Both the position numbers and the translations under genes were made by a program. 18,390 bases of DNA from a virus. The stretch lies in the UHGV virus genome UHGV-1669119; one strand, written 5' to 3'. Below are positions 6,318 to 16,259 of this stretch, piece after piece (the first letter of the stretch is position 1; each line of letters starts with the position of its first letter). The notes beneath the pieces are model-generated. The model was not told the DNA's origin. It saw only the letters and a program-made list of their open reading frames with translations, and did no database searches.

Positions 6318-6419
6318 TTTTAGTGGTATTTAGCAACAACAAACGAGGTTTGTCAAATACAACAAAAATTGTTTTTAATGTGGGGATACACATTAATACA
6401 ACCCAGAAGGACTAATCCC
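6318..6419. promoter_or_regulatory. Immunity-region operator/promoter interval (OR-like) between divergent cro and cI
   Basis: Palindromes with ACAA...TTGT half-sites: ACAAACGAGGTTTGT (6338-6352) and ACAACAAAAATTGT (6358-6373). GAAGGA Shine-Dalgarno for cI at 6405-6410. Confidence 0.5.
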
Positions 6420-7043
6420 ATGTCTCTCGCAGCCCGTTTTAAAGCACGTCGTTTGGAATTAGGAATGACTCAAGTGGAAGTAGCGAATTCTGCAGGGGTT
6501 AGCCAACAATCCATAGAATCCATCGAAAGTGGACGAACCAGAAAGCCACGCAATCTTCTGGATCTGGCTAAGGCCTTGAAATGTAGCCCAGACTGGCTAC
6601 TGAACGGTAAAAATATTATGCCTCTCGCGGAGATAAGTACCAGACGCATACCTATATTAAGTTACGTTCAGGCAGGAGAGCTTACAGAAGCAAGAGACAT
6701 AACAGATCTGACAGGGGAATTTGAATATATTTTGGCAGACTCTGACATTCCAGAAACATGCTTCGCATTACGTATCGATGGCGACAGCATGCAACCAGAG
6801 TTTAAAGAAGGAGACATTGTTATCATCGATCCTGATCTATGTCCTGCACCAGGGGAGTTTGTTGTCGCCAAAAACGACGGTCACGAAGCTACATTTAAAA
6901 AATACCGTCCATTAGGAATCGGCATCGACGACTTTGAATTAATCCCCCTAAATCCTGATTACCCTATTTTTCGTAGTGCAGATATGAACTTACAGATCAT
7001 AGGTGTAATGATCGAACACCGTATTTACCGCCGTAAACGTTAG
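6420..7043 (+). CDS. cI: CI-like repressor: N-terminal HTH_XRE plus C-terminal S24 (LexA-like) self-cleaving peptidase domain
   Basis: Track ORF starts at TTG 6369; likely true start is ATG 6420 (MSLAARFKARRLELGMTQVEVANSAGVSQQSIESIESG...). Ala-Gly cleavage motif (VQAGE), catalytic GDSM serine and downstream FKK lysine. Confidence 0.85.
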   Translation: MSLAARFKARRLELGMTQVEVANSAGVSQQSIESIESGRTRKPRNLLDLAKALKCSPDWLLNGKNIMPLAEISTRRIPILSYVQAGELTEARDITDLTGEFEYILADSDIPETCFALRIDGDSMQPEFKEGDIVIIDPDLCPAPGEFVVAKNDGHEATFKKYRPLGIGIDDFELIPLNPDYPIFRSADMNLQIIGVMIEHRIYRRKR

Positions 7044-7062
7044 TATTCCCACCGTAAATATC

Positions 7063-7082
7063 GGGAGGCGTAACAGCCTCCC
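7063..7082. terminator. GC-rich stem-loop just after cI (possible weak or bidirectional terminator)
   Basis: GGGAGGC-gtaaca-GCCTCCC, 7-bp perfect stem; flanking T-tracts are poor on both strands. Confidence 0.3.
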
Positions 7083-7147
7083 TTACCCCATTTGTAAAGT
7101 CTTACAAATTAAATTCACTTAAATATCAATAAAGTAGTATTCACACC

Positions 7148-10044: not shown

Positions 10045-10593
10045 ATGAAACTGAAGCTGAACAATGTTCGTCTGGCCTTCCCGTCTCTGTTTGAAGCTAA
10101 AACTGTAAACGGCGAAGGCGATCCGCGTTTCTCCGCAGTATTTTTAATGTCTCCCAAACACCCACAACTGGAAGAAATCCGTAAAGCTATGAAGCAGGTA
10201 GCGAAGGAAAAATGGGGGGAGAAGTGGGAGTCCATTTATAACCAGCTGGAGAAAAAACTCAATCTGTGCCTGCATGATGGTGATGAAAAAGCAGAGTATG
10301 AAGGCTTTCCCGGCAATTTCTTCCTGAACGCTGCTAACAAAGCGCGCCCAGCTGTTCTTGATCGCGATCGTTCGCCACTAATTCAGGCTGATGGACGTCC
10401 CTATGCAGGGTGCTATGTAAACGCCGTTATCGATATCTGGGCACAGGACAATAATTTCGGTAAACGCATTAATGCCTCACTCGGCGGAGTCCAGTTCCTG
10501 CGAGACGGCGATGCATTCGCTGGCGGCGGAGTGGCAAGCGCTGACGATTTCGACGATATCAGCGAAGGTGCTGATGCTGAAGCACTAATTTAA
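10045..10593 (+). CDS. DUF2815-family protein (ssDNA-binding-like partner of DUF2800 and phage DNA polymerase)
   Basis: MKLKLNNVRLAFPSLFEAK... N-terminus characteristic of DUF2815; acidic C-terminal tail (DDFDDISEGADAEALI); conserved position between DUF2800 and polA. Confidence 0.65.
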   Translation: MKLKLNNVRLAFPSLFEAKTVNGEGDPRFSAVFLMSPKHPQLEEIRKAMKQVAKEKWGEKWESIYNQLEKKLNLCLHDGDEKAEYEGFPGNFFLNAANKARPAVLDRDRSPLIQADGRPYAGCYVNAVIDIWAQDNNFGKRINASLGGVQFLRDGDAFAGGGVASADDFDDISEGADAEALI

Positions 10594-10644
10594 AAATATT
10601 CATCCCCCAGCTGCGTGCTGGGGGATCTCATGAGGGAAAGAATA

Positions 10645-11283
10645 ATGTCACAGCCCGTATTAACTAATTACCTTAAAACTCAAATCATCAATAACGCACT
10701 TGAGAAAGCGGGTATCCCCAAACGTAAATCAGCACTACGAGCTGCTCGTGTTGAATGGGCCGAACGTGTTCGGCTTGCAGCTATCGGGGGCGTAGAGAAA
10801 GAAGCTGAAATATTAAAAAATATAAAAAAAATAGAAACACTGGTATCAAAATTCCCCGAAGCATTAAAAACCGCCAATAACATTATCAGGGAAGAGTGTT
10901 ACATGTGTCTGAATCTGGCAGGTTCTCGGGTTACCGTCTATTTCAACGGTAACTACCGAGGATATGAATCAGGGTCACCAGACCATATTCACAAAATCGC
11001 GCCGGGGGAATTTACCCTTCTGGCAAATGACCCTCTAGTTACAGAGTTTTACGGGTTTGATACACTTTATGAGCAGATACAGAGCGATGAGTCAGACATT
11101 CGACAGAATGTCAGCGCTGCACTCAGTAAAGTGCGCACAGTTAAGCGCCTGCTGGAAGAGTGGCCTGAAGCTAAAGAACTTCTGCCAGCCGATGCACCAT
11201 CTGCTCCGCTTCCGCCAGCTATACGACGCGAAACTCTCAACGAAATGATCGGCCTCCCTTCTGACGAAGGGGTAGATGCTTAA
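10645..11283 (+). CDS. Hypothetical protein (212 aa) in a low-GC island
   Basis: Track ORF 10615..11283; ATG 10645 has AGGGAA 6 nt upstream. AT-rich codon usage relative to the flanking replication genes. No recognisable motif. Confidence 0.5.
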   Translation: MSQPVLTNYLKTQIINNALEKAGIPKRKSALRAARVEWAERVRLAAIGGVEKEAEILKNIKKIETLVSKFPEALKTANNIIREECYMCLNLAGSRVTVYFNGNYRGYESGSPDHIHKIAPGEFTLLANDPLVTEFYGFDTLYEQIQSDESDIRQNVSAALSKVRTVKRLLEEWPEAKELLPADAPSAPLPPAIRRETLNEMIGLPSDEGVDA

Positions 11284-11350
11284 TATTTCTTATAACAAAG
11301 GCTGGCTTAAGAAAATAGTTATCCAAACCAGCCTACCGCAATACTAAAAA

Positions 11351-11620
11351 TTAAAATTCATTGAATTTAAAAAGACATTTCCCTATTGGATTGCCATAGT
11401 CTCTACATACCGAAATGCTGTCCCATACAGGCTGAGCCAAACACCCAAGAAAGAACCCAATAAGCGCAAAAATTATAATTTTGGGAAGAACACGATCCTT
11501 AGGACCTTCTTCACGTTCGAGCCATGCGCCACCAGCCCGAACTATTCTCCCTAAAATATAAAGAATGGGGAAAGCAATAATACCTATCAATGAAAGTATT
11601 CCGATACCAAAGCTAAACAC
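11351..11620 (-). CDS. Small membrane protein (89 aa, two predicted transmembrane helices), antisense to the surrounding operon
   Basis: GTG start 11618-11620 preceded by AAGGAG at 6-nt spacing; hydrophobic segments FGIGILSLIGIIAFPILYILG and IIIFALIGFFLGCLA; low GC; convergent with the 212-aa ORF and divergent from polA. Confidence 0.55.
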   Translation of the reverse strand: MFSFGIGILSLIGIIAFPILYILGRIVRAGGAWLEREEGPKDRVLPKIIIFALIGFFLGCLAQPVWDSISVCRDYGNPIGKCLFKFNEF

Positions 11621-11676
11621 CGCCGTCTCCTTGTTTATTTACACCTACATAACCATATATCACACAAGGTTATTTT

Positions 11677-13740
11677 ATGTCCAATATACTATGGGGTGAC
11701 CTAGAAACCTATTGCGAAATCCCTATTACGAACGGTACCCATGCGTATGCCGAAGGCGTTGAAGTGATGCTGTTCGCATGGGCTATCAACGACGAGCCCG
11801 TAAACGTGTGGGATATCACTGCCGGTGGTGGTATTCCACACGGCTTATACGAAGCAATCGCAGCCCCTGAAACCCTGCTTTATTTTCATAACTCTCACTT
11901 CGACCGCACCGTCCTGCGTTATGCAATGCCGCGCCTGGCACCGCCAGTCGAACGTTGGCGCGACACAATGGTGCAGGCGCTGGCGCACGGTCTCCCGGGG
12001 TCTCTGGGGGAACTCTGCGAAGTACTAGGCGTCCCGCAAGACAAAGCGAAGGACAAAGAAGGTAAAGCGCTGATCCAGCTGTTCTGTAAGCCACGCCCGA
12101 AAAACAGCAAACTGCGCCGGGCCACCAGCAAAACCCACCCGGAAGAATGGCGGCGCTTTGTTGCTTACGCCGGACTGGATATCGAGGCAATGCGCGAAGT
12201 CTATAAACGTCTGCCGAAGTGGAATTATCAGGGGACAGAACTGGCGCTCTGGCATCGTGATCAGCAGATCAACGACCGGGGCGTCTGCATGGACATTCAA
12301 CTCGCGCGCGCTGCGATCGAAGCGGTAGACCAGGAGCAAAAGCGCCTGGCAAAGCGTACACAGGAAATGACTGATGGCGAAGTGCAGGCAGCAACACAAC
12401 GGGACGCGTTGATTAAGCACATCGTTGAATCCTACGGTGTGGAGCTACCAGACATGCAACGCAGTACTCTGGAACGTCGTATAGCCGACCCCGATTTACC
12501 ATCTGCCGTGAAAGAACTGCTGGCTATCCGCCTGCAGGCCAGTACTACCAGCACCAGTAAATACAAGGCACTGATGAAAGGCGTAAGCCACGACGGGCGC
12601 TTACGCGGTACGCTACAGTTCTGCGGGGCGTCACGTACCGGTCGTTGGGCCGGACGGCTATTCCAGCCCCAGAACCTTCCCCGCCCTTCACTAAAACAGG
12701 AACAAATAGACGAAGGCATCGAAGCACTGAAAGCCGGATGTGCAGACCTGCTGTTTGACAATATCATGGAACTAACCAGTTCAGCGTTACGTGGCTGCAT
12801 TATCGCGCCAACAGGCAAAAAACTGGTGGTAAGTGACTTGTCGAACATTGAAGGCCGTATGCTGGCATGGCTGGCGGGAGAAGAATGGAAACTGAATGCA
12901 TTCAGAGAGTACGACGCCGGAACGGGTCCGGACTTATATAAACTGGCGTATGCAAAAGCTTTCGATATTGCACCAGATGATGTTGATAAACACATGCGTC
13001 AGATCGGTAAAGTCATGGAACTCGGTCTGGGTTATGGAGGTGGTGTATCGGCTTTCATCACTTTTGCTCTGGTTTACGGTCTCGATCTCGACGAGCTGGC
13101 GAACGCCGCACTGCCAAACATTCCCCGCGATGTTATCCGCGAGGCGAAAAGCTGGTACAACGAATCGGTTAAACGTAAGTCGACCTTTGGCCTGTCCGAG
13201 CGTGTATTCATCGCATGTGACTCGCTCAAGCGCCTGTGGCGCAGGGCGCACCCGGCGACCTGCGATTTCTGGTACGAACTGGAGCGCACCGTCCGCACTG
13301 CAATCGCCACACCGCAAAAAACATTGTATTGCGGTTATCTTAAAATCCGCCGCGATGGCGCGTGGCTGCGCATACAGCTACCATCCGGACGCGCTGTATG
13401 CTACCCCTCTCCGGTTATCGAAAAAGGGAATATCACCTATATGGGTGTTAACTCTTATTCGCGTAAATGGCAACGACTCAAAACCTACGGCGGAAAGCTG
13501 GTAGAGAACGTCACCCAGGCGGCCGCCCGCGACGTTCTGGCCGGAAACATGCCGCTTATCGAAGATGCCGGTTACAGCATTGTGCTGACGGTACACGACG
13601 AGGTGATCACCGAAGCACCTGACACAGAAGATTTCAACGATAAAGCGCTTTCCGCGCTTCTCTCCACTAACCCCGAATGGGCGCCCGATATCCCACTGAA
13701 CGCTGGCGGTTTTGAGGCGTACCACTACCGTAAGGATTAA
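11677..13740 (+). CDS. DNA polymerase, family A (phage-type, with N-terminal 3'-5' exonuclease-like region)
   Basis: 687 aa; Pol A palm motifs including ...[11 protein letters not shown]... (motif A-like D...E), ...[16 protein letters not shown]... (motif B-like K...YG) and ...[11 protein letters not shown]... (motif C HDE). Confidence 0.85.
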
Positions 13741-13745
13741 TCGCT

Positions 13746-13949
13746 ATGACTGTAATCAAAACGCATACCGGAACGGTTATTACCCGCACCGGTGAAAAGC
13801 AGGTGCAATTGCATCAAAACGCGACAACGTGGGTGGCTGGCCCAAAAGAGTATTACTACAAAGACACTGGCCGCCGCGGTGGTGCTGTCGGTGTCCGCAC
13901 TCGTCTGGTGCTGAGCAGCATCCGCCCAATCGAAGCAAAGCAGGAGTAA
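13746..13949 (+). CDS. Hypothetical small protein (67 aa)
   Basis: ATG 6 nt after the polA stop, AAGGA upstream; no motifs recognised. Confidence 0.4.
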   Translation: MTVIKTHTGTVITRTGEKQVQLHQNATTWVAGPKEYYYKDTGRRGGAVGVRTRLVLSSIRPIEAKQE

Positions 13950-13954
13950 CCCCT

Positions 13955-14176
13955 ATGTCATTTAAATATCGGGACAGTCCGCTTTATTACCGGGCTGCGA
14001 GGGAGGCCTTGCGCCTTGAGCAGTCCGGCGAATATGACCGGGCAGCGAAGGTCTGGGCCAAGGCTAACCGCCAGTCACGTAACGAACTGAATCAGGACTG
14101 GAGCGAACGCCGGTCTGATTTTTGTCTGATGCAGAACATGCGCGAAAAGCGTAAGGCGGTGAGCGATGACTTGTGA
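13955..14176 (+). CDS. ANR-family-like small regulator (73 aa)
   Basis: Track ORF 13829..14176; ATG 13955 with GGAG 8 nt upstream. MSFKYRDSPLYYRAAREALRLEQSGEYDRAAKVWAKANRQSRNELNQDWSERRSDFC fits the ANR pattern as I recall it (Y..AA..A..E..G.Y..A..W..A ... W ... C). Confidence 0.5.
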   Translation: MSFKYRDSPLYYRAAREALRLEQSGEYDRAAKVWAKANRQSRNELNQDWSERRSDFCLMQNMREKRKAVSDDL

Positions 14177-14648
14177 GCAGACCATTCTTGACATGTGCTG
14201 CGGCTCTCGTATGTTTTGGTTCGACAAGGAGGACAAGCGCGCCGTGTTCAGTGATATCCGCGCCGAGCAGCATGAGCTTTGCGACGGTCGCCAGTTGGTT
14301 ATAAGTCCGGACCTTATAGCTGATTTCCGCGCCCTTCCCTTTGCCGATAACACTTTCCCTGTCGTCGTTTTCGATCCGCCGCACCTCGAGCGCGTCGGCG
14401 ATAACGCATGGATGAGGAAAAAGTACGGGCGGCTCAACAAAGAAACATGGCGCGATGATCTTCGCGACGGCTTCGCCGAAGCATTCAGGGTATTGCGGCC
14501 CCACGGTGTACTCATATTCAAATGGAACGAAACGCAGATCCCGGTAAGCAATATCTTGGCGCTGACCGACGAGAAGCCGGCCATATGGCAACGAACCGGA
14601 AAAGCCGACAAAACCCACTGGGTTATTTTCGTCAAAGGTGTGGAATGA
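14166..14648 (+). CDS. Small SAM-dependent DNA methyltransferase (N6-adenine / N4-cytosine class, DPPH motif)
   Basis: Motif I-like LDMCCGS and motif IV VVVFDPPH; 160 aa; start overlaps the ANR-like stop (ATGACTTGTGA) and stop overlaps the VRR-NUC start. Confidence 0.6.
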   Translation: MTCEQTILDMCCGSRMFWFDKEDKRAVFSDIRAEQHELCDGRQLVISPDLIADFRALPFADNTFPVVVFDPPHLERVGDNAWMRKKYGRLNKETWRDDLRDGFAEAFRVLRPHGVLIFKWNETQIPVSNILALTDEKPAIWQRTGKADKTHWVIFVKGVE

Positions 14649-14941
14649 TGGCCTACGAACGTGAAAGCCTTATCGAAAAGCACCTCGTCGCCGAAGTGAA
14701 AAAGGCTGGCGGGGTCGCCTTTAAGTTCGTGTCACCCGGTCGCCGCTCGGTACCGGATCGCATTGTCCTGCTACCCGGCGGTCGCATCGTCTTTGTCGAA
14801 TGCAAAGCGCCAAGCAAACCACCACGGCCTGACCAGTTACGCGAGCACGAACGGCTGCGCGCGTTGGGCTTTACCGTGGTGGTATTAGATAGCAAAAATC
14901 TGGAGGGGATATTGTGCGGGGAGCCTATTACAACGAAATAG
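14645..14941 (+). CDS. VRR-NUC domain nuclease
   Basis: Track ORF 14522..14941; probable start ATG 14645 (MMAYERESLIEKHLVAEVKKAGG...). PD-(D/E)XK core PDRIVLL...IVFVECKAP typical of VRR-NUC. Confidence 0.65.
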   Translation: MMAYERESLIEKHLVAEVKKAGGVAFKFVSPGRRSVPDRIVLLPGGRIVFVECKAPSKPPRPDQLREHERLRALGFTVVVLDSKNLEGILCGEPITTK

Positions 14942-15942
14942 ACCCTAACGCAGCACAATGGCTGCGTAACCTTATTGCTGCAGGTCATATCGCCCCGGGT
15001 GAAGTTGATGAAAGGAGTATCGAAGATGTCGCACCAGACGACTTGCGCGGATTCACACAGTGCCATTTCTTCGCCGGGATCGGCGTCTGGTCTTATGCTC
15101 TGCGTCTGGCCGGATGGCCGGATAACAAACCGGTCTGGACAGGAAGTTGCCCGTGCCAGCCTTTCAGCTCGGCTGGTAAAGGCGCTGGGTTTGATGACGA
15201 GCGGCACCTATGGCCAGCACTATTCCACCTCATCAGCGAGCGACGCCCTAAGCTGGTATTTGGCGAACAGGTTGCGGGAGTCAATGCCTGGTTCGATCTT
15301 GTACAAACTGACGTGGAAGCAGTGGACTACGCCTTTGGGCTTGTCCCGTTTCCGGCTGCGGGCGTCGGTGCCCCGCATATCCGAGATAGAGCGTATTGGG
15401 TGGCCGACGCCAGCGGCGAGCGATCACAGCGGTGGCGAAAGCGCCTCAATAGCATTGAGGAAGATGTCTGGAGATCGTCGACCGTCCGGCAACACGCTAC
15501 ACAGCTCCCTGCGGAATTTTGCTCACCTAGCGGGGTGGTACACCCCAACCTGCAACACAAACCCACAGCCGGAGACAAAACGCGGTCTAGAAACCTTAGC
15601 GGGACTATCCAGATTAGCGGGATGGCCGACAGTGACGACGATCGACAACAACCAAGTTCGTGCCGAGGGCGCAGCGGCCAATCATACCGAACGGGGAACG
15701 ACCCTCGGCGGCGCTGCGAGAATCTGCGGCCCAATACGATTAACGGCTGCTGGGATGGTGCTGACTGGCTCCTCTGCCGGGATGGTCGCTGGCGGCCAGT
15801 TGAATCCGGCACATGCCCGTTGGCTAATGGGATTACCTCCAGAGTGGGACGACTGCGCGCCTACGGCAACGCGATAGTCGCACCAGCTGCCGCAACATTC
15901 ATCCGCTCGTTTATGGAATGCGCAGGATACGACCTTATTTAA
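14914..15942 (+). pseudogene. DNA cytosine-5 methyltransferase whose central segment (about 15396-15860) lies in a different reading frame from its N- and C-terminal motifs
   Basis: Frame 1 (GTG 14914, GGAGG upstream) carries motif I FFAGIG, motif IV PCQPFS, motif VI-like GEQV and motif [11 protein letters not shown], then after about 15860 motif X YGNAIVAP. Motif IX ([16 protein letters not shown]) and the repeated GWPTP-type motifs are in frame 2 (track ORF 14975..15877). Both frames are stop-free, so a 342-aa polypeptide is still encoded. Confidence 0.55.
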
Positions 15943-16259
15943 TGCCACTCACATCTGGCATGATACCGTCCAGAAGGTAATTGCTTATATACAACGGAGC
16001 CGCCCATGGCATAAGTATAAGCATGAAGTTTTGTCCAGAAGTCCCCATAAACTAGTATTGGGGCTAAAAATTTTGGATCGCTAACCATAGATGTAGCAGG
16101 AAGCTCGAAACCTTTAGAAAGAATGTTTACCAGTGAAGGGTAATTTTCAAAATCAGTGCTATTCCCGCCCACCTCTAAAGCATCCAGTTCAAAGTCGAGC
16201 ACTCCACCATTTTTGTAATACTCCGGAACAGTTAACCCTGATGTTAACAAAGTAGCCAT
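15939..16259 (-). CDS. Hypothetical protein (106 aa) in a low-GC island, antisense to the flanking genes
   Basis: ATG 16257-16259 with AGGAGG 8 nt upstream; island 15943-16290 is visibly AT-rich (roughly 40% GC by eye) against GC-richer neighbours; stop overlaps the C5-MTase stop. Confidence 0.5.
   Translation of the reverse strand: MATLLTSGLTVPEYYKNGGVLDFELDALEVGGNSTDFENYPSLVNILSKGFELPATSMVSDPKFLAPILVYGDFWTKLHAYTYAMGGSVVYKQLPSGRYHARCEWH

Follow-up and report, generated by a model that had tools for sequence, protein, structure and literature searches.

A variable cargo slot in the early operon of a temperate Escherichia coli phage, with an Nmad5 gene and an antisense gene for a small predicted membrane protein

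Between the DUF2815 and polA genes of UHGV virus genome UHGV-1669119, of which we analysed a stretch of 18,390 nucleotides (nt; hereafter, the window), lies an AT-rich interval with two convergent genes. The plus-strand gene encodes a protein of 212 amino acids (aa), and the minus-strand gene encodes an 89-aa protein that we call TM89. The locus raises the question of whether these genes form an undescribed two-gene accessory system, as had been proposed from the sequence alone (the original prediction), or are independent occupants of a site whose contents vary. We consider the second answer probable: the interval would be one allele of a cargo slot that a temperate E. coli phage carries within its early operon, and the two genes in it would be functionally independent. 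The original prediction was partly confirmed as an observation, and its interpretation was partly supported, being about half right.

A prophage adjoining yfhL in several E. coli strains (BH100, F11 and Ecol_542 among them) is 100% identical to the window. Pfam and PHROG matches, together with annotation, identify its early region as an Enc34-type replication module, with a VapE-type primase gene (minus strand), a repressor/Cro pair, DUF2800, DUF2815, polA, VRR-NUC and SNF2, in that order. The genes and their order are identical to those of Enc34. However, DUF2815 in Enc34 directly adjoins polA, with a gap of 72 bp, whereas the window has cargo at the DUF2815/polA, polA/VRR-NUC and VRR-NUC/SNF2 junctions. 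Given that the gene for the single-stranded DNA-binding protein (SSB) adjoins the polymerase gene in Enc34, the premise that an insert separates two usually adjacent genes is sound. Homology breakpoints agree with it: in an alignment with phage vB_EcoM-606R2, homology ends about 2 nt past the DUF2815 TAA and resumes at the polA ATG, and a comparison of the junctions of eight alleles placed breakpoints against related prophages at the two ends of the interval.

The interval is also distinct in composition. The two open reading frames, their ribosome binding sites and their positions (Table 1) are as originally described, and so is the low GC content of the interval (0.430, where the window as a whole averages 0.507). 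A GC content this low was reached by just 1.7% of 1083-bp segments, and those other than the interval itself all fall in the immunity region (6.0-7.3 kb). The drop is moderate in the gene for the 212-aa protein (0.459, with 0.385 at third codon positions) and marked in the TM89 gene, the lowest of those compared (0.393, with 0.30 at third codon positions); the values for DUF2815 and polA are 0.492 and 0.544.

Among 5,426 complete E. coli genomes, the DUF2815/polA flanks were present in 159, and the comparison of related phages that the original prediction had called for bears out that what lies between them is variable. The whole interval, with both genes, occurs in 32 of the 159 genomes; the TM89 DNA segment is found once in each of these 32, at ≥99.5% identity, and nowhere else. 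A gene of the window type for the 212-aa protein, which belongs to the Nmad5 family (see below), is present in 59 of the 159, as the window allele in 32 and as a second allele (allele B) in about 27. In all, at least seven different alternatives occupy precisely this position in related E. coli prophages. Allele B combines an Nmad5 gene (77-79% aa identity and about 80% nt identity to the window copy) with an unrelated antisense gene for a 229-aa soluble protein. In other prophages the occupant is a gene for a BRO-N protein, or else a lone antisense gene whose membrane-protein product is 178, 199 or 209 aa long and has one transmembrane (TM) segment at its N-terminal end and two at its C-terminal end. 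In E. coli TUM1880 the slot is taken by a SIR2 protein of 493 aa with a match to PDC-S25, a PADLOC candidate (E=4e-157; 9706-11187 of L008, one of the loci sampled), and the next slot, immediately past polA, holds a TIR protein (PDC-S35, E=2e-109). All of these cassettes are AT-rich (0.30-0.43) except that with BRO-N, and each has its own hairpin just past DUF2815. Clear relatedness among the antisense occupants is limited to the 178- and 209-aa proteins, whose architecture the 199-aa protein resembles (E about 0.2); the remaining occupants are unrelated. We conclude that the interval is a recombinational cargo slot.

Several further features of the occupants can be recorded. The antisense genes for proteins of 178-209 aa are the commonest occupants in the sample, at a GC content of about 0.30-0.33; the proteins are uncharacterised and had no match in Pfam or PADLOC. 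The polymerase gene of TUM1880 is flanked by two defence-type genes, SIR2 and TIR. In the BRO-N allele (E. coli O121 201805972; L007, 1545-2060), an HNH endonuclease gene lies between DUF2800 and DUF2815, and the polymerase gene (L007, 3865 onward) is 2,835 bp long, about 770 bp longer than its window counterpart, a difference that points to another insertion, within polA or at its start.

Like lambdoid phage morons and the cargo hotspots of prophages, the slot occupies a fixed place between conserved genes and has precise breakpoints. Its cargo, like theirs, is AT-rich, often antisense, provided with its own signals and variable between near-identical prophages, and, as in prophage hotspots, it includes defence-type genes (SIR2 PDC-S25 here, TIR PDC-S35 in the next slot). 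It differs from prophage hotspots in its location, which is within a replication operon, flanked by the SSB-like and polymerase genes, and not at the prophage ends or beside late genes. Defence hotspots in P2 and P4 were reportedly described by Rousset et al. in 2022. A literature search, which was not aimed at hotspots, returned no paper describing one at DUF2815/polA, and we found no paper mentioning the protein accessions or the related phages. The original prediction had likened the island to compositionally foreign morons. The TM89 gene behaves like a moron in that it has the lowest GC content, its own Shine-Dalgarno sequence and terminator and relatives at accessory sites, and it occurs in 32 of the 159 genomes with the module, between breakpoints at the DUF2815 stop codon and the polA ATG. 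The Nmad5 gene is co-oriented with the operon. The locus is a real but fairly ordinary case of prophage mosaicism, a cargo hotspot with morons.

Table 1. Features of the cargo slot, of the surrounding replication module and of the commonest alternative occupants
Feature	Position	Strand	Description
Swappable cargo slot	10594..11676	.	DUF2815 stop codon ends at 10593; polA ATG at 11677
GC hairpin	10603..10625	-	On the minus strand, resembles a terminator with the tail GAAUAUUUUU; plus strand lacks a U-tract
Shine-Dalgarno sequence GAGG for nmad5	10632..10635	+	9 nt before the ATG, read from the sequence
nmad5	10645..11283	+	212 aa, ATG start; co-oriented with the replication operon; annotated in RefSeq
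Hairpin between the convergent genes	11295..11339	-	Followed by UUUGUUAU on the minus strand; likely TM89 terminator
TM89	11351..11620	-	89 aa, GTG start; RefSeq coding sequence WP_000490741.1; predicted two-TM inner-membrane protein
Shine-Dalgarno sequence AAGGAG for TM89	11627..11632	-	6 nt before the GTG
Candidate sigma-70-like promoter for TM89	11672..11700	-	GTCACC-17-TAAAAT, 8/12; overlaps the polA start; weak
DUF2800			PD-(D/E)XK nuclease
DUF2815			Gp2.5-like SSB
polA			Family A DNA polymerase
VRR-NUC			Nuclease, downstream of polA in the module
SNF2			Helicase, downstream of polA in the module
Antisense occupants of 178-209 aa	L004 2121-2720; L005 2147-2683; L006 2147-2776; L002 5647-6276	-	Loci sampled

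The terminator-like signals within the slot are orientation-specific. The left boundary had been marked by a GC hairpin without a U-tract, which is correct for the plus strand and not for the minus strand, where the hairpin is followed by GAAUAUUUUU and 10626..10602 scores as an intrinsic terminator. The folding energy of this hairpin is -21.9 kcal/mol on the plus strand and -20.8 kcal/mol on the minus strand (z of -3.6 and -4.0). It is common to alleles A and B; other alleles have a different hairpin in the same place. The hairpin between the convergent genes is stable on the minus strand (-20.3 kcal/mol, z of -3.6, with none of 200 shuffled sequences as good) and much weaker on the plus strand (-10.6 kcal/mol, z of -1.7), where it lacks a U-tract. 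Since both hairpins are directed at the minus strand, they should halt minus-strand transcripts and let the plus-strand operon reach polA. Promoter scans found no plus-strand promoter upstream of nmad5 or polA, and Rfam and tRNA scans of the interval found no RNA genes.

The original prediction had recognised no domain in the 212-aa protein. We found that it matches Pfam PF18757, Nmad5, over its full length (E=3e-56; 191.2 bits, with a gathering cut-off of 27; positions 3-206 of the 206 in the profile), and phrog_1965 (E=2e-62); the allele-B copy scores 189.5 bits against the Pfam model. Nmad5 stands for 'nucleotide modification associated domain 5', and the PGAP/RefSeq name of the protein is 'Nmad5 family putative nucleotide modification protein'. 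The earlier claim that no known family is represented here holds for the 89-aa protein only. The AlphaFold2 model of Nmad5 (predicted local distance difference test score of 85) folds as a helical bundle that includes a small beta insert and ends in a disordered tail at the C-terminus. The motifs WPE(A/V) and, at the C-terminus, LNxx(I/L)G(L/I)P are shared by the window protein and its N4-like, eiAU, Amjad_SA and Yuavirus homologues, and the window protein resembles the family in size, helical architecture, its WPEA and LNxxIGLP motifs and its position in an early region near polA. The most conserved feature, from E. coli prophages to Yuavirus, is the extreme C-terminal peptide (residues about 195-212; window 11227-11283), which is borne on a low-confidence proline-rich linker; the remaining conserved residues are mostly hydrophobic. 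The C-terminal NxM-I-G-L loosely resembles beta-clamp-binding hexapeptides of the Pol IV/Hda type (QLVLGL, QLSLPL), and we keep this likeness only as a lead.

Nmad5 homologues are numerous in Enterobacterales prophages, and 153 deposited phage records match. In most contexts that we read, the gene lies in or near replication or nucleotide-metabolism genes. Salmonella prophages have the order DUF2800, DUF2815, a PerC-like gene, Nmad5, more genes and polA, and Xenorhabdus has DUF2815, Nmad5, an antisense gene for a 206-aa protein and polA. In the N4-like Klebsiella phage Pylas the order is polA, HNH, thyA, Nmad5, a PD-(D/E)XK nuclease, primase, an AAA-domain gene and SSB. Nmad5 lies downstream of a helicase-primase gene in Edwardsiella phage eiAU, and downstream of the O/DnaC replication genes and upstream of ninG in Salmonella phage SPN3UB; a Proteus copy lies in a lambdoid early-left operon, so that the Proteus and SPN3UB copies are both in lambdoid early or nin-type regions. 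The original prediction had named homology to a known phage function as a finding that would tell against it, and an Nmad5 protein encoded near replication and nucleotide-metabolism genes comes close to that.

What Nmad5 does in these phages can be read in two ways. One possibility is that it is a true DNA or nucleotide base-modifying factor, through which the phage genome escapes host restriction. The family name points towards this, as does its position in Yuavirus SN1 and M6-like phages, where Nmad5 lies upstream of polA inside a thymidine-hypermodification cluster (PMC9476957); in Pylas it follows the thymidylate synthase gene. In addition, a K-to-E change in a gene annotated nmad5 allowed Dhillonvirus phages to escape the Tmn defence; however, deletion of nmad5 did not abolish Tmn sensitivity, and the wild-type gene resisted cloning (PMC11846954). 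This Dhillonvirus work provides the only experimental data on Nmad5 that we found. Several observations in E. coli prophages argue against base modification. Pfam searches and annotation revealed no aGPT-Pplase, kinase or hydroxymethylase in the window, a fold search with the predicted helical-bundle model gave no enzyme-like match, and what is conserved consists mostly of hydrophobic residues plus the terminal peptide. The family name comes from gene neighbourhood, that of modification enzymes, whereas the window and the allele-B prophage lack a base-hypermodification enzyme; to our knowledge, no biochemical activity has been established for any member. Neighbourhood is a contextual trait and not a sequence criterion, and therefore the membership of the window protein in the family stands. 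We considered a link between Nmad5 and the downstream methyltransferases of the window (the 160-aa methyltransferase and Dcm) and ruled it out, because allele B has Nmad5 and no methyltransferase is annotated in the early operon of its prophage, from DUF2815 to the integrase. We regard base modification as unlikely. Because Nmad5 has no enzyme signature, we favour a role as a non-catalytic adaptor in phage DNA metabolism. It is optional for the replication module, given that only 59 of the 159 genomes carry it, and nmad5 would be read with the DUF2800-DUF2815-polA operon on prophage induction.

TM89 had been described as a two-TM protein with a strong AAGGAG Shine-Dalgarno sequence, and the hydropathy profile, the AlphaFold2 model and the spacing of that sequence all agree. 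Hydrophobic segments span about residues 1-30 and 42-67, and the model has two long helices (5-37 and 44-74) and a third at 79-87. TM89 at first appeared to be an ORFan, since a word-index search gave only near-identical E. coli copies; this was overturned by an exhaustive phmmer search, which returned 118 cluster representatives at E≤1e-3 and 36 at E≤1e-10. The relatives are all about 85-95 aa long and match end to end at 30-50% identity. In the alignment G59, Q63, C72 and C82 are invariant, the cysteines forming a C-terminal CX9C, and the motifs FSxGxxS, FPxxYL, AWxxRxxxPK(D/E)R and GFxxGSxxQPxWD...C...G.....C are shared. We conclude from these sequence comparisons that TM89 is a member of a real protein family, for which Pfam, PHROGs, NCBIfam and PADLOC have no covering model. 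The loop between the helices contains six Lys/Arg residues, and the tail contains three. These charge counts and the invariant CX9C suggest that the basic loop is cytoplasmic and that the tail is periplasmic and disulfide-bonded (N-out/C-out).

The family extends to E. coli, Serratia, Pantoea, Pseudomonas and metagenomes, and nearly every context that could be read is a prophage accessory site; the exception is a metagenome contig in which the gene lies beside an IS1595 transposase gene. Serratia nevei has a decayed relative of the window prophage, with a polA product of 73% aa identity, in which a TM89-family gene (49% identical, in matching orientation) lies alone, without Nmad5, between a degraded DUF2815 and polA. 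In a Pantoea lambdoid prophage the gene lies between the lysis genes and terminase, and in P. aeruginosa prophages it is antisense between the endolysin gene and terS, the protein being listed in 342 collection blocks. One contig has it between terL and portal, and on a P2-like viral contig its neighbours include a Tox-REase-5/Imm52 pair and an N6 methyltransferase.

Two observations at these loci stand apart. In S. nevei (L019/L020, about 6320-7100), DUF2815 and DUF2800 are frameshifted or truncated beside the host genes YCII, QueH and TonB, and polA and the small membrane gene are intact although the prophage appears decayed. In P. aeruginosa (L033-L036, 6613-6945), the TM89-family gene is immediately preceded, on its own strand, by a gene for a protein of 95-110 aa with no Pfam match. 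The E. coli locus lacks this upstream gene, which could be a partner of the TM89 family in the P. aeruginosa lineage.

TM89 would be a self-contained moron, with its own Shine-Dalgarno sequence and minus-strand terminator. Because operon transcription must cross TM89 antisense to reach polA, we infer that TM89 is expressed mainly when the repressor keeps that operon shut off, as in a lysogen, and would be silenced by antisense read-through on induction. The protein probably acts at the envelope. Since it appears to be a small inner-membrane protein, encoded by a stand-alone prophage gene and provided with a conserved periplasmic loop, the most economical function would be exclusion of superinfecting phage at DNA entry, a tentative assignment that commands a minority share of our confidence. 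T4 Imm and HK97 gp15 are small inner-membrane superinfection-exclusion proteins, and TM89 presumably resembles them as a small phage or prophage protein of the inner membrane, mostly a stand-alone moron. It has no sequence relationship to either, and its conserved PK(D/E)R loop and its CX9C tail are features of the TM89 family only.

The two TM helices and the holin-like size of TM89 are also what would be expected of a lysis-related or toxic membrane protein, such as a holin, an antiholin or a small toxin, and the Pantoea and Pseudomonas relatives do adjoin lysis cassettes. However, those relatives are on the strand opposite the lysis and late genes, and the E. coli and Serratia copies are far from lysis genes, TM89 being antisense in the early operon. 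The lysis genes of the window are at 1039-2386 and already include a lambda-family holin (2027-2386). The few Pfam or PHROG matches of 52 family members include no holin family, and the invariant cysteine pair would fit an N-out/C-out topology and not that of a class II holin. Strand, position and the lack of family matches make a lysis or toxin role less likely than exclusion, and we judge it rather improbable.

We turn now to the proposal that Nmad5 and TM89 are one accessory system (toxin-antitoxin, abortive infection (Abi) or defence), in which the soluble protein would sense and the membrane protein would execute. The genes are convergent neighbours within one AT-rich interval, they travel together in 32 E. 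coli genomes, and the slot can carry a defence-type SIR2 gene. Elsewhere, however, the two genes part company. Nmad5 is found with four other, unrelated downstream antisense genes, among them those of allele B (229 aa, soluble), Salmonella (203 aa, with a signal peptide) and Xenorhabdus (206 aa), and also in phages that show no TM89 relative nearby. Conversely, TM89-family genes occur without Nmad5 in Serratia, at the equivalent slot, and in Pantoea and Pseudomonas, and at the other TM89-family loci that we read no neighbour was recorded as, or scanned as, Nmad5. Opposite strands exclude co-transcription. The original prediction had also suggested exclusion, abortive-infection or toxin components, and no toxin, Abi or defence model matches either protein: PADLOC-DB v2 returned no family for Nmad5 and none for TM89, with the SIR2 occupant (PDC-S25) as positive control. 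Because the genes assort independently and cannot be co-transcribed, we conclude that they are not one system; this very improbable alternative is already largely refuted. That the 89-aa reading frame is a chance one or an annotation artefact, as its short length, GTG start, lack of a match in the four libraries and near-identical copies in the word-index search might suggest, is effectively refuted by 118 full-length relatives of the same size with an invariant G, Q and two C, conserved motifs and 30-50% identity, by the strong Shine-Dalgarno sequence and dedicated terminator, and by the 49%-identical relative in the equivalent Serratia position.

Several points weigh against the interpretation of the slot as home to an exclusion gene and an adaptor gene. 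The function of TM89 is inferred by analogy, with no family match: Pfam, PHROGs, PADLOC and NCBIfam have no known exclusion, Abi, holin or toxin family that matches it, and none among TM89 and 52 relatives matches Pfam Imm_superinfect or any exclusion family. Its proposed topology is suggested by charge counts and the cysteine pair only. The best TM89 promoter candidate scores only 8/12, none is convincing, and a stricter scan of the upstream region found none. For Nmad5, the family name and the position in the Yuavirus thymidine-hypermodification cluster point towards base modification. We nevertheless consider two independent genes in a cargo slot to be the probable explanation. A bolder version, which we hold to be doubtful, is that TM89 founds an undescribed, widespread two-helix prophage family that shields lysogens through a periplasmic disulfide loop, blocking genome entry, and that DUF2815/polA is an unrecognised defence hotspot whose other occupants are new immunity genes. 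If this were true, the 178-209-aa three-TM proteins and the 229-aa soluble protein would also be new immunity genes.

Cargo is not confined to this junction. The polA/VRR-NUC junction is also variable: the window (13741-14650) has genes for a 67-aa protein, an ANR regulator and a 160-aa S-adenosylmethionine methyltransferase there, and relatives (L008, 13393-14154; L002, 8451-9212) have the TIR protein PDC-S35, an Ant antirepressor or DUF4406. A second low-GC antisense gene of the window (15939-16259, minus strand; 106 aa, GC content of 0.417, phrog_28127), whose product had no Pfam or PADLOC match, lies between the genes for the Dcm methyltransferase and the SNF2 helicase; at this junction relatives have Rha/Arc regulators, a 195-aa protein or a DUF6338 protein. 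Given that the contents differ between relatives, the Dcm/SNF2 junction is another cargo slot.

For annotation, these results mean that the claim of an unknown protein should be dropped for the 212-aa gene, whose family has already been named. That label, 'nucleotide modification', may itself mislead, since Nmad5 is dispensable in the module, is found without modification enzymes and has a universally conserved C-terminal peptide; it may have a binding partner. The TM89 family is covered by no model in four libraries though it is common in P. aeruginosa prophages, and TM89 is a reasonable candidate for phage challenge. Near-identical prophages in 159 E. coli genomes that differ at one variable junction amount to a natural experiment, and the junction would be a cheap place in which to find genes that protect lysogens.

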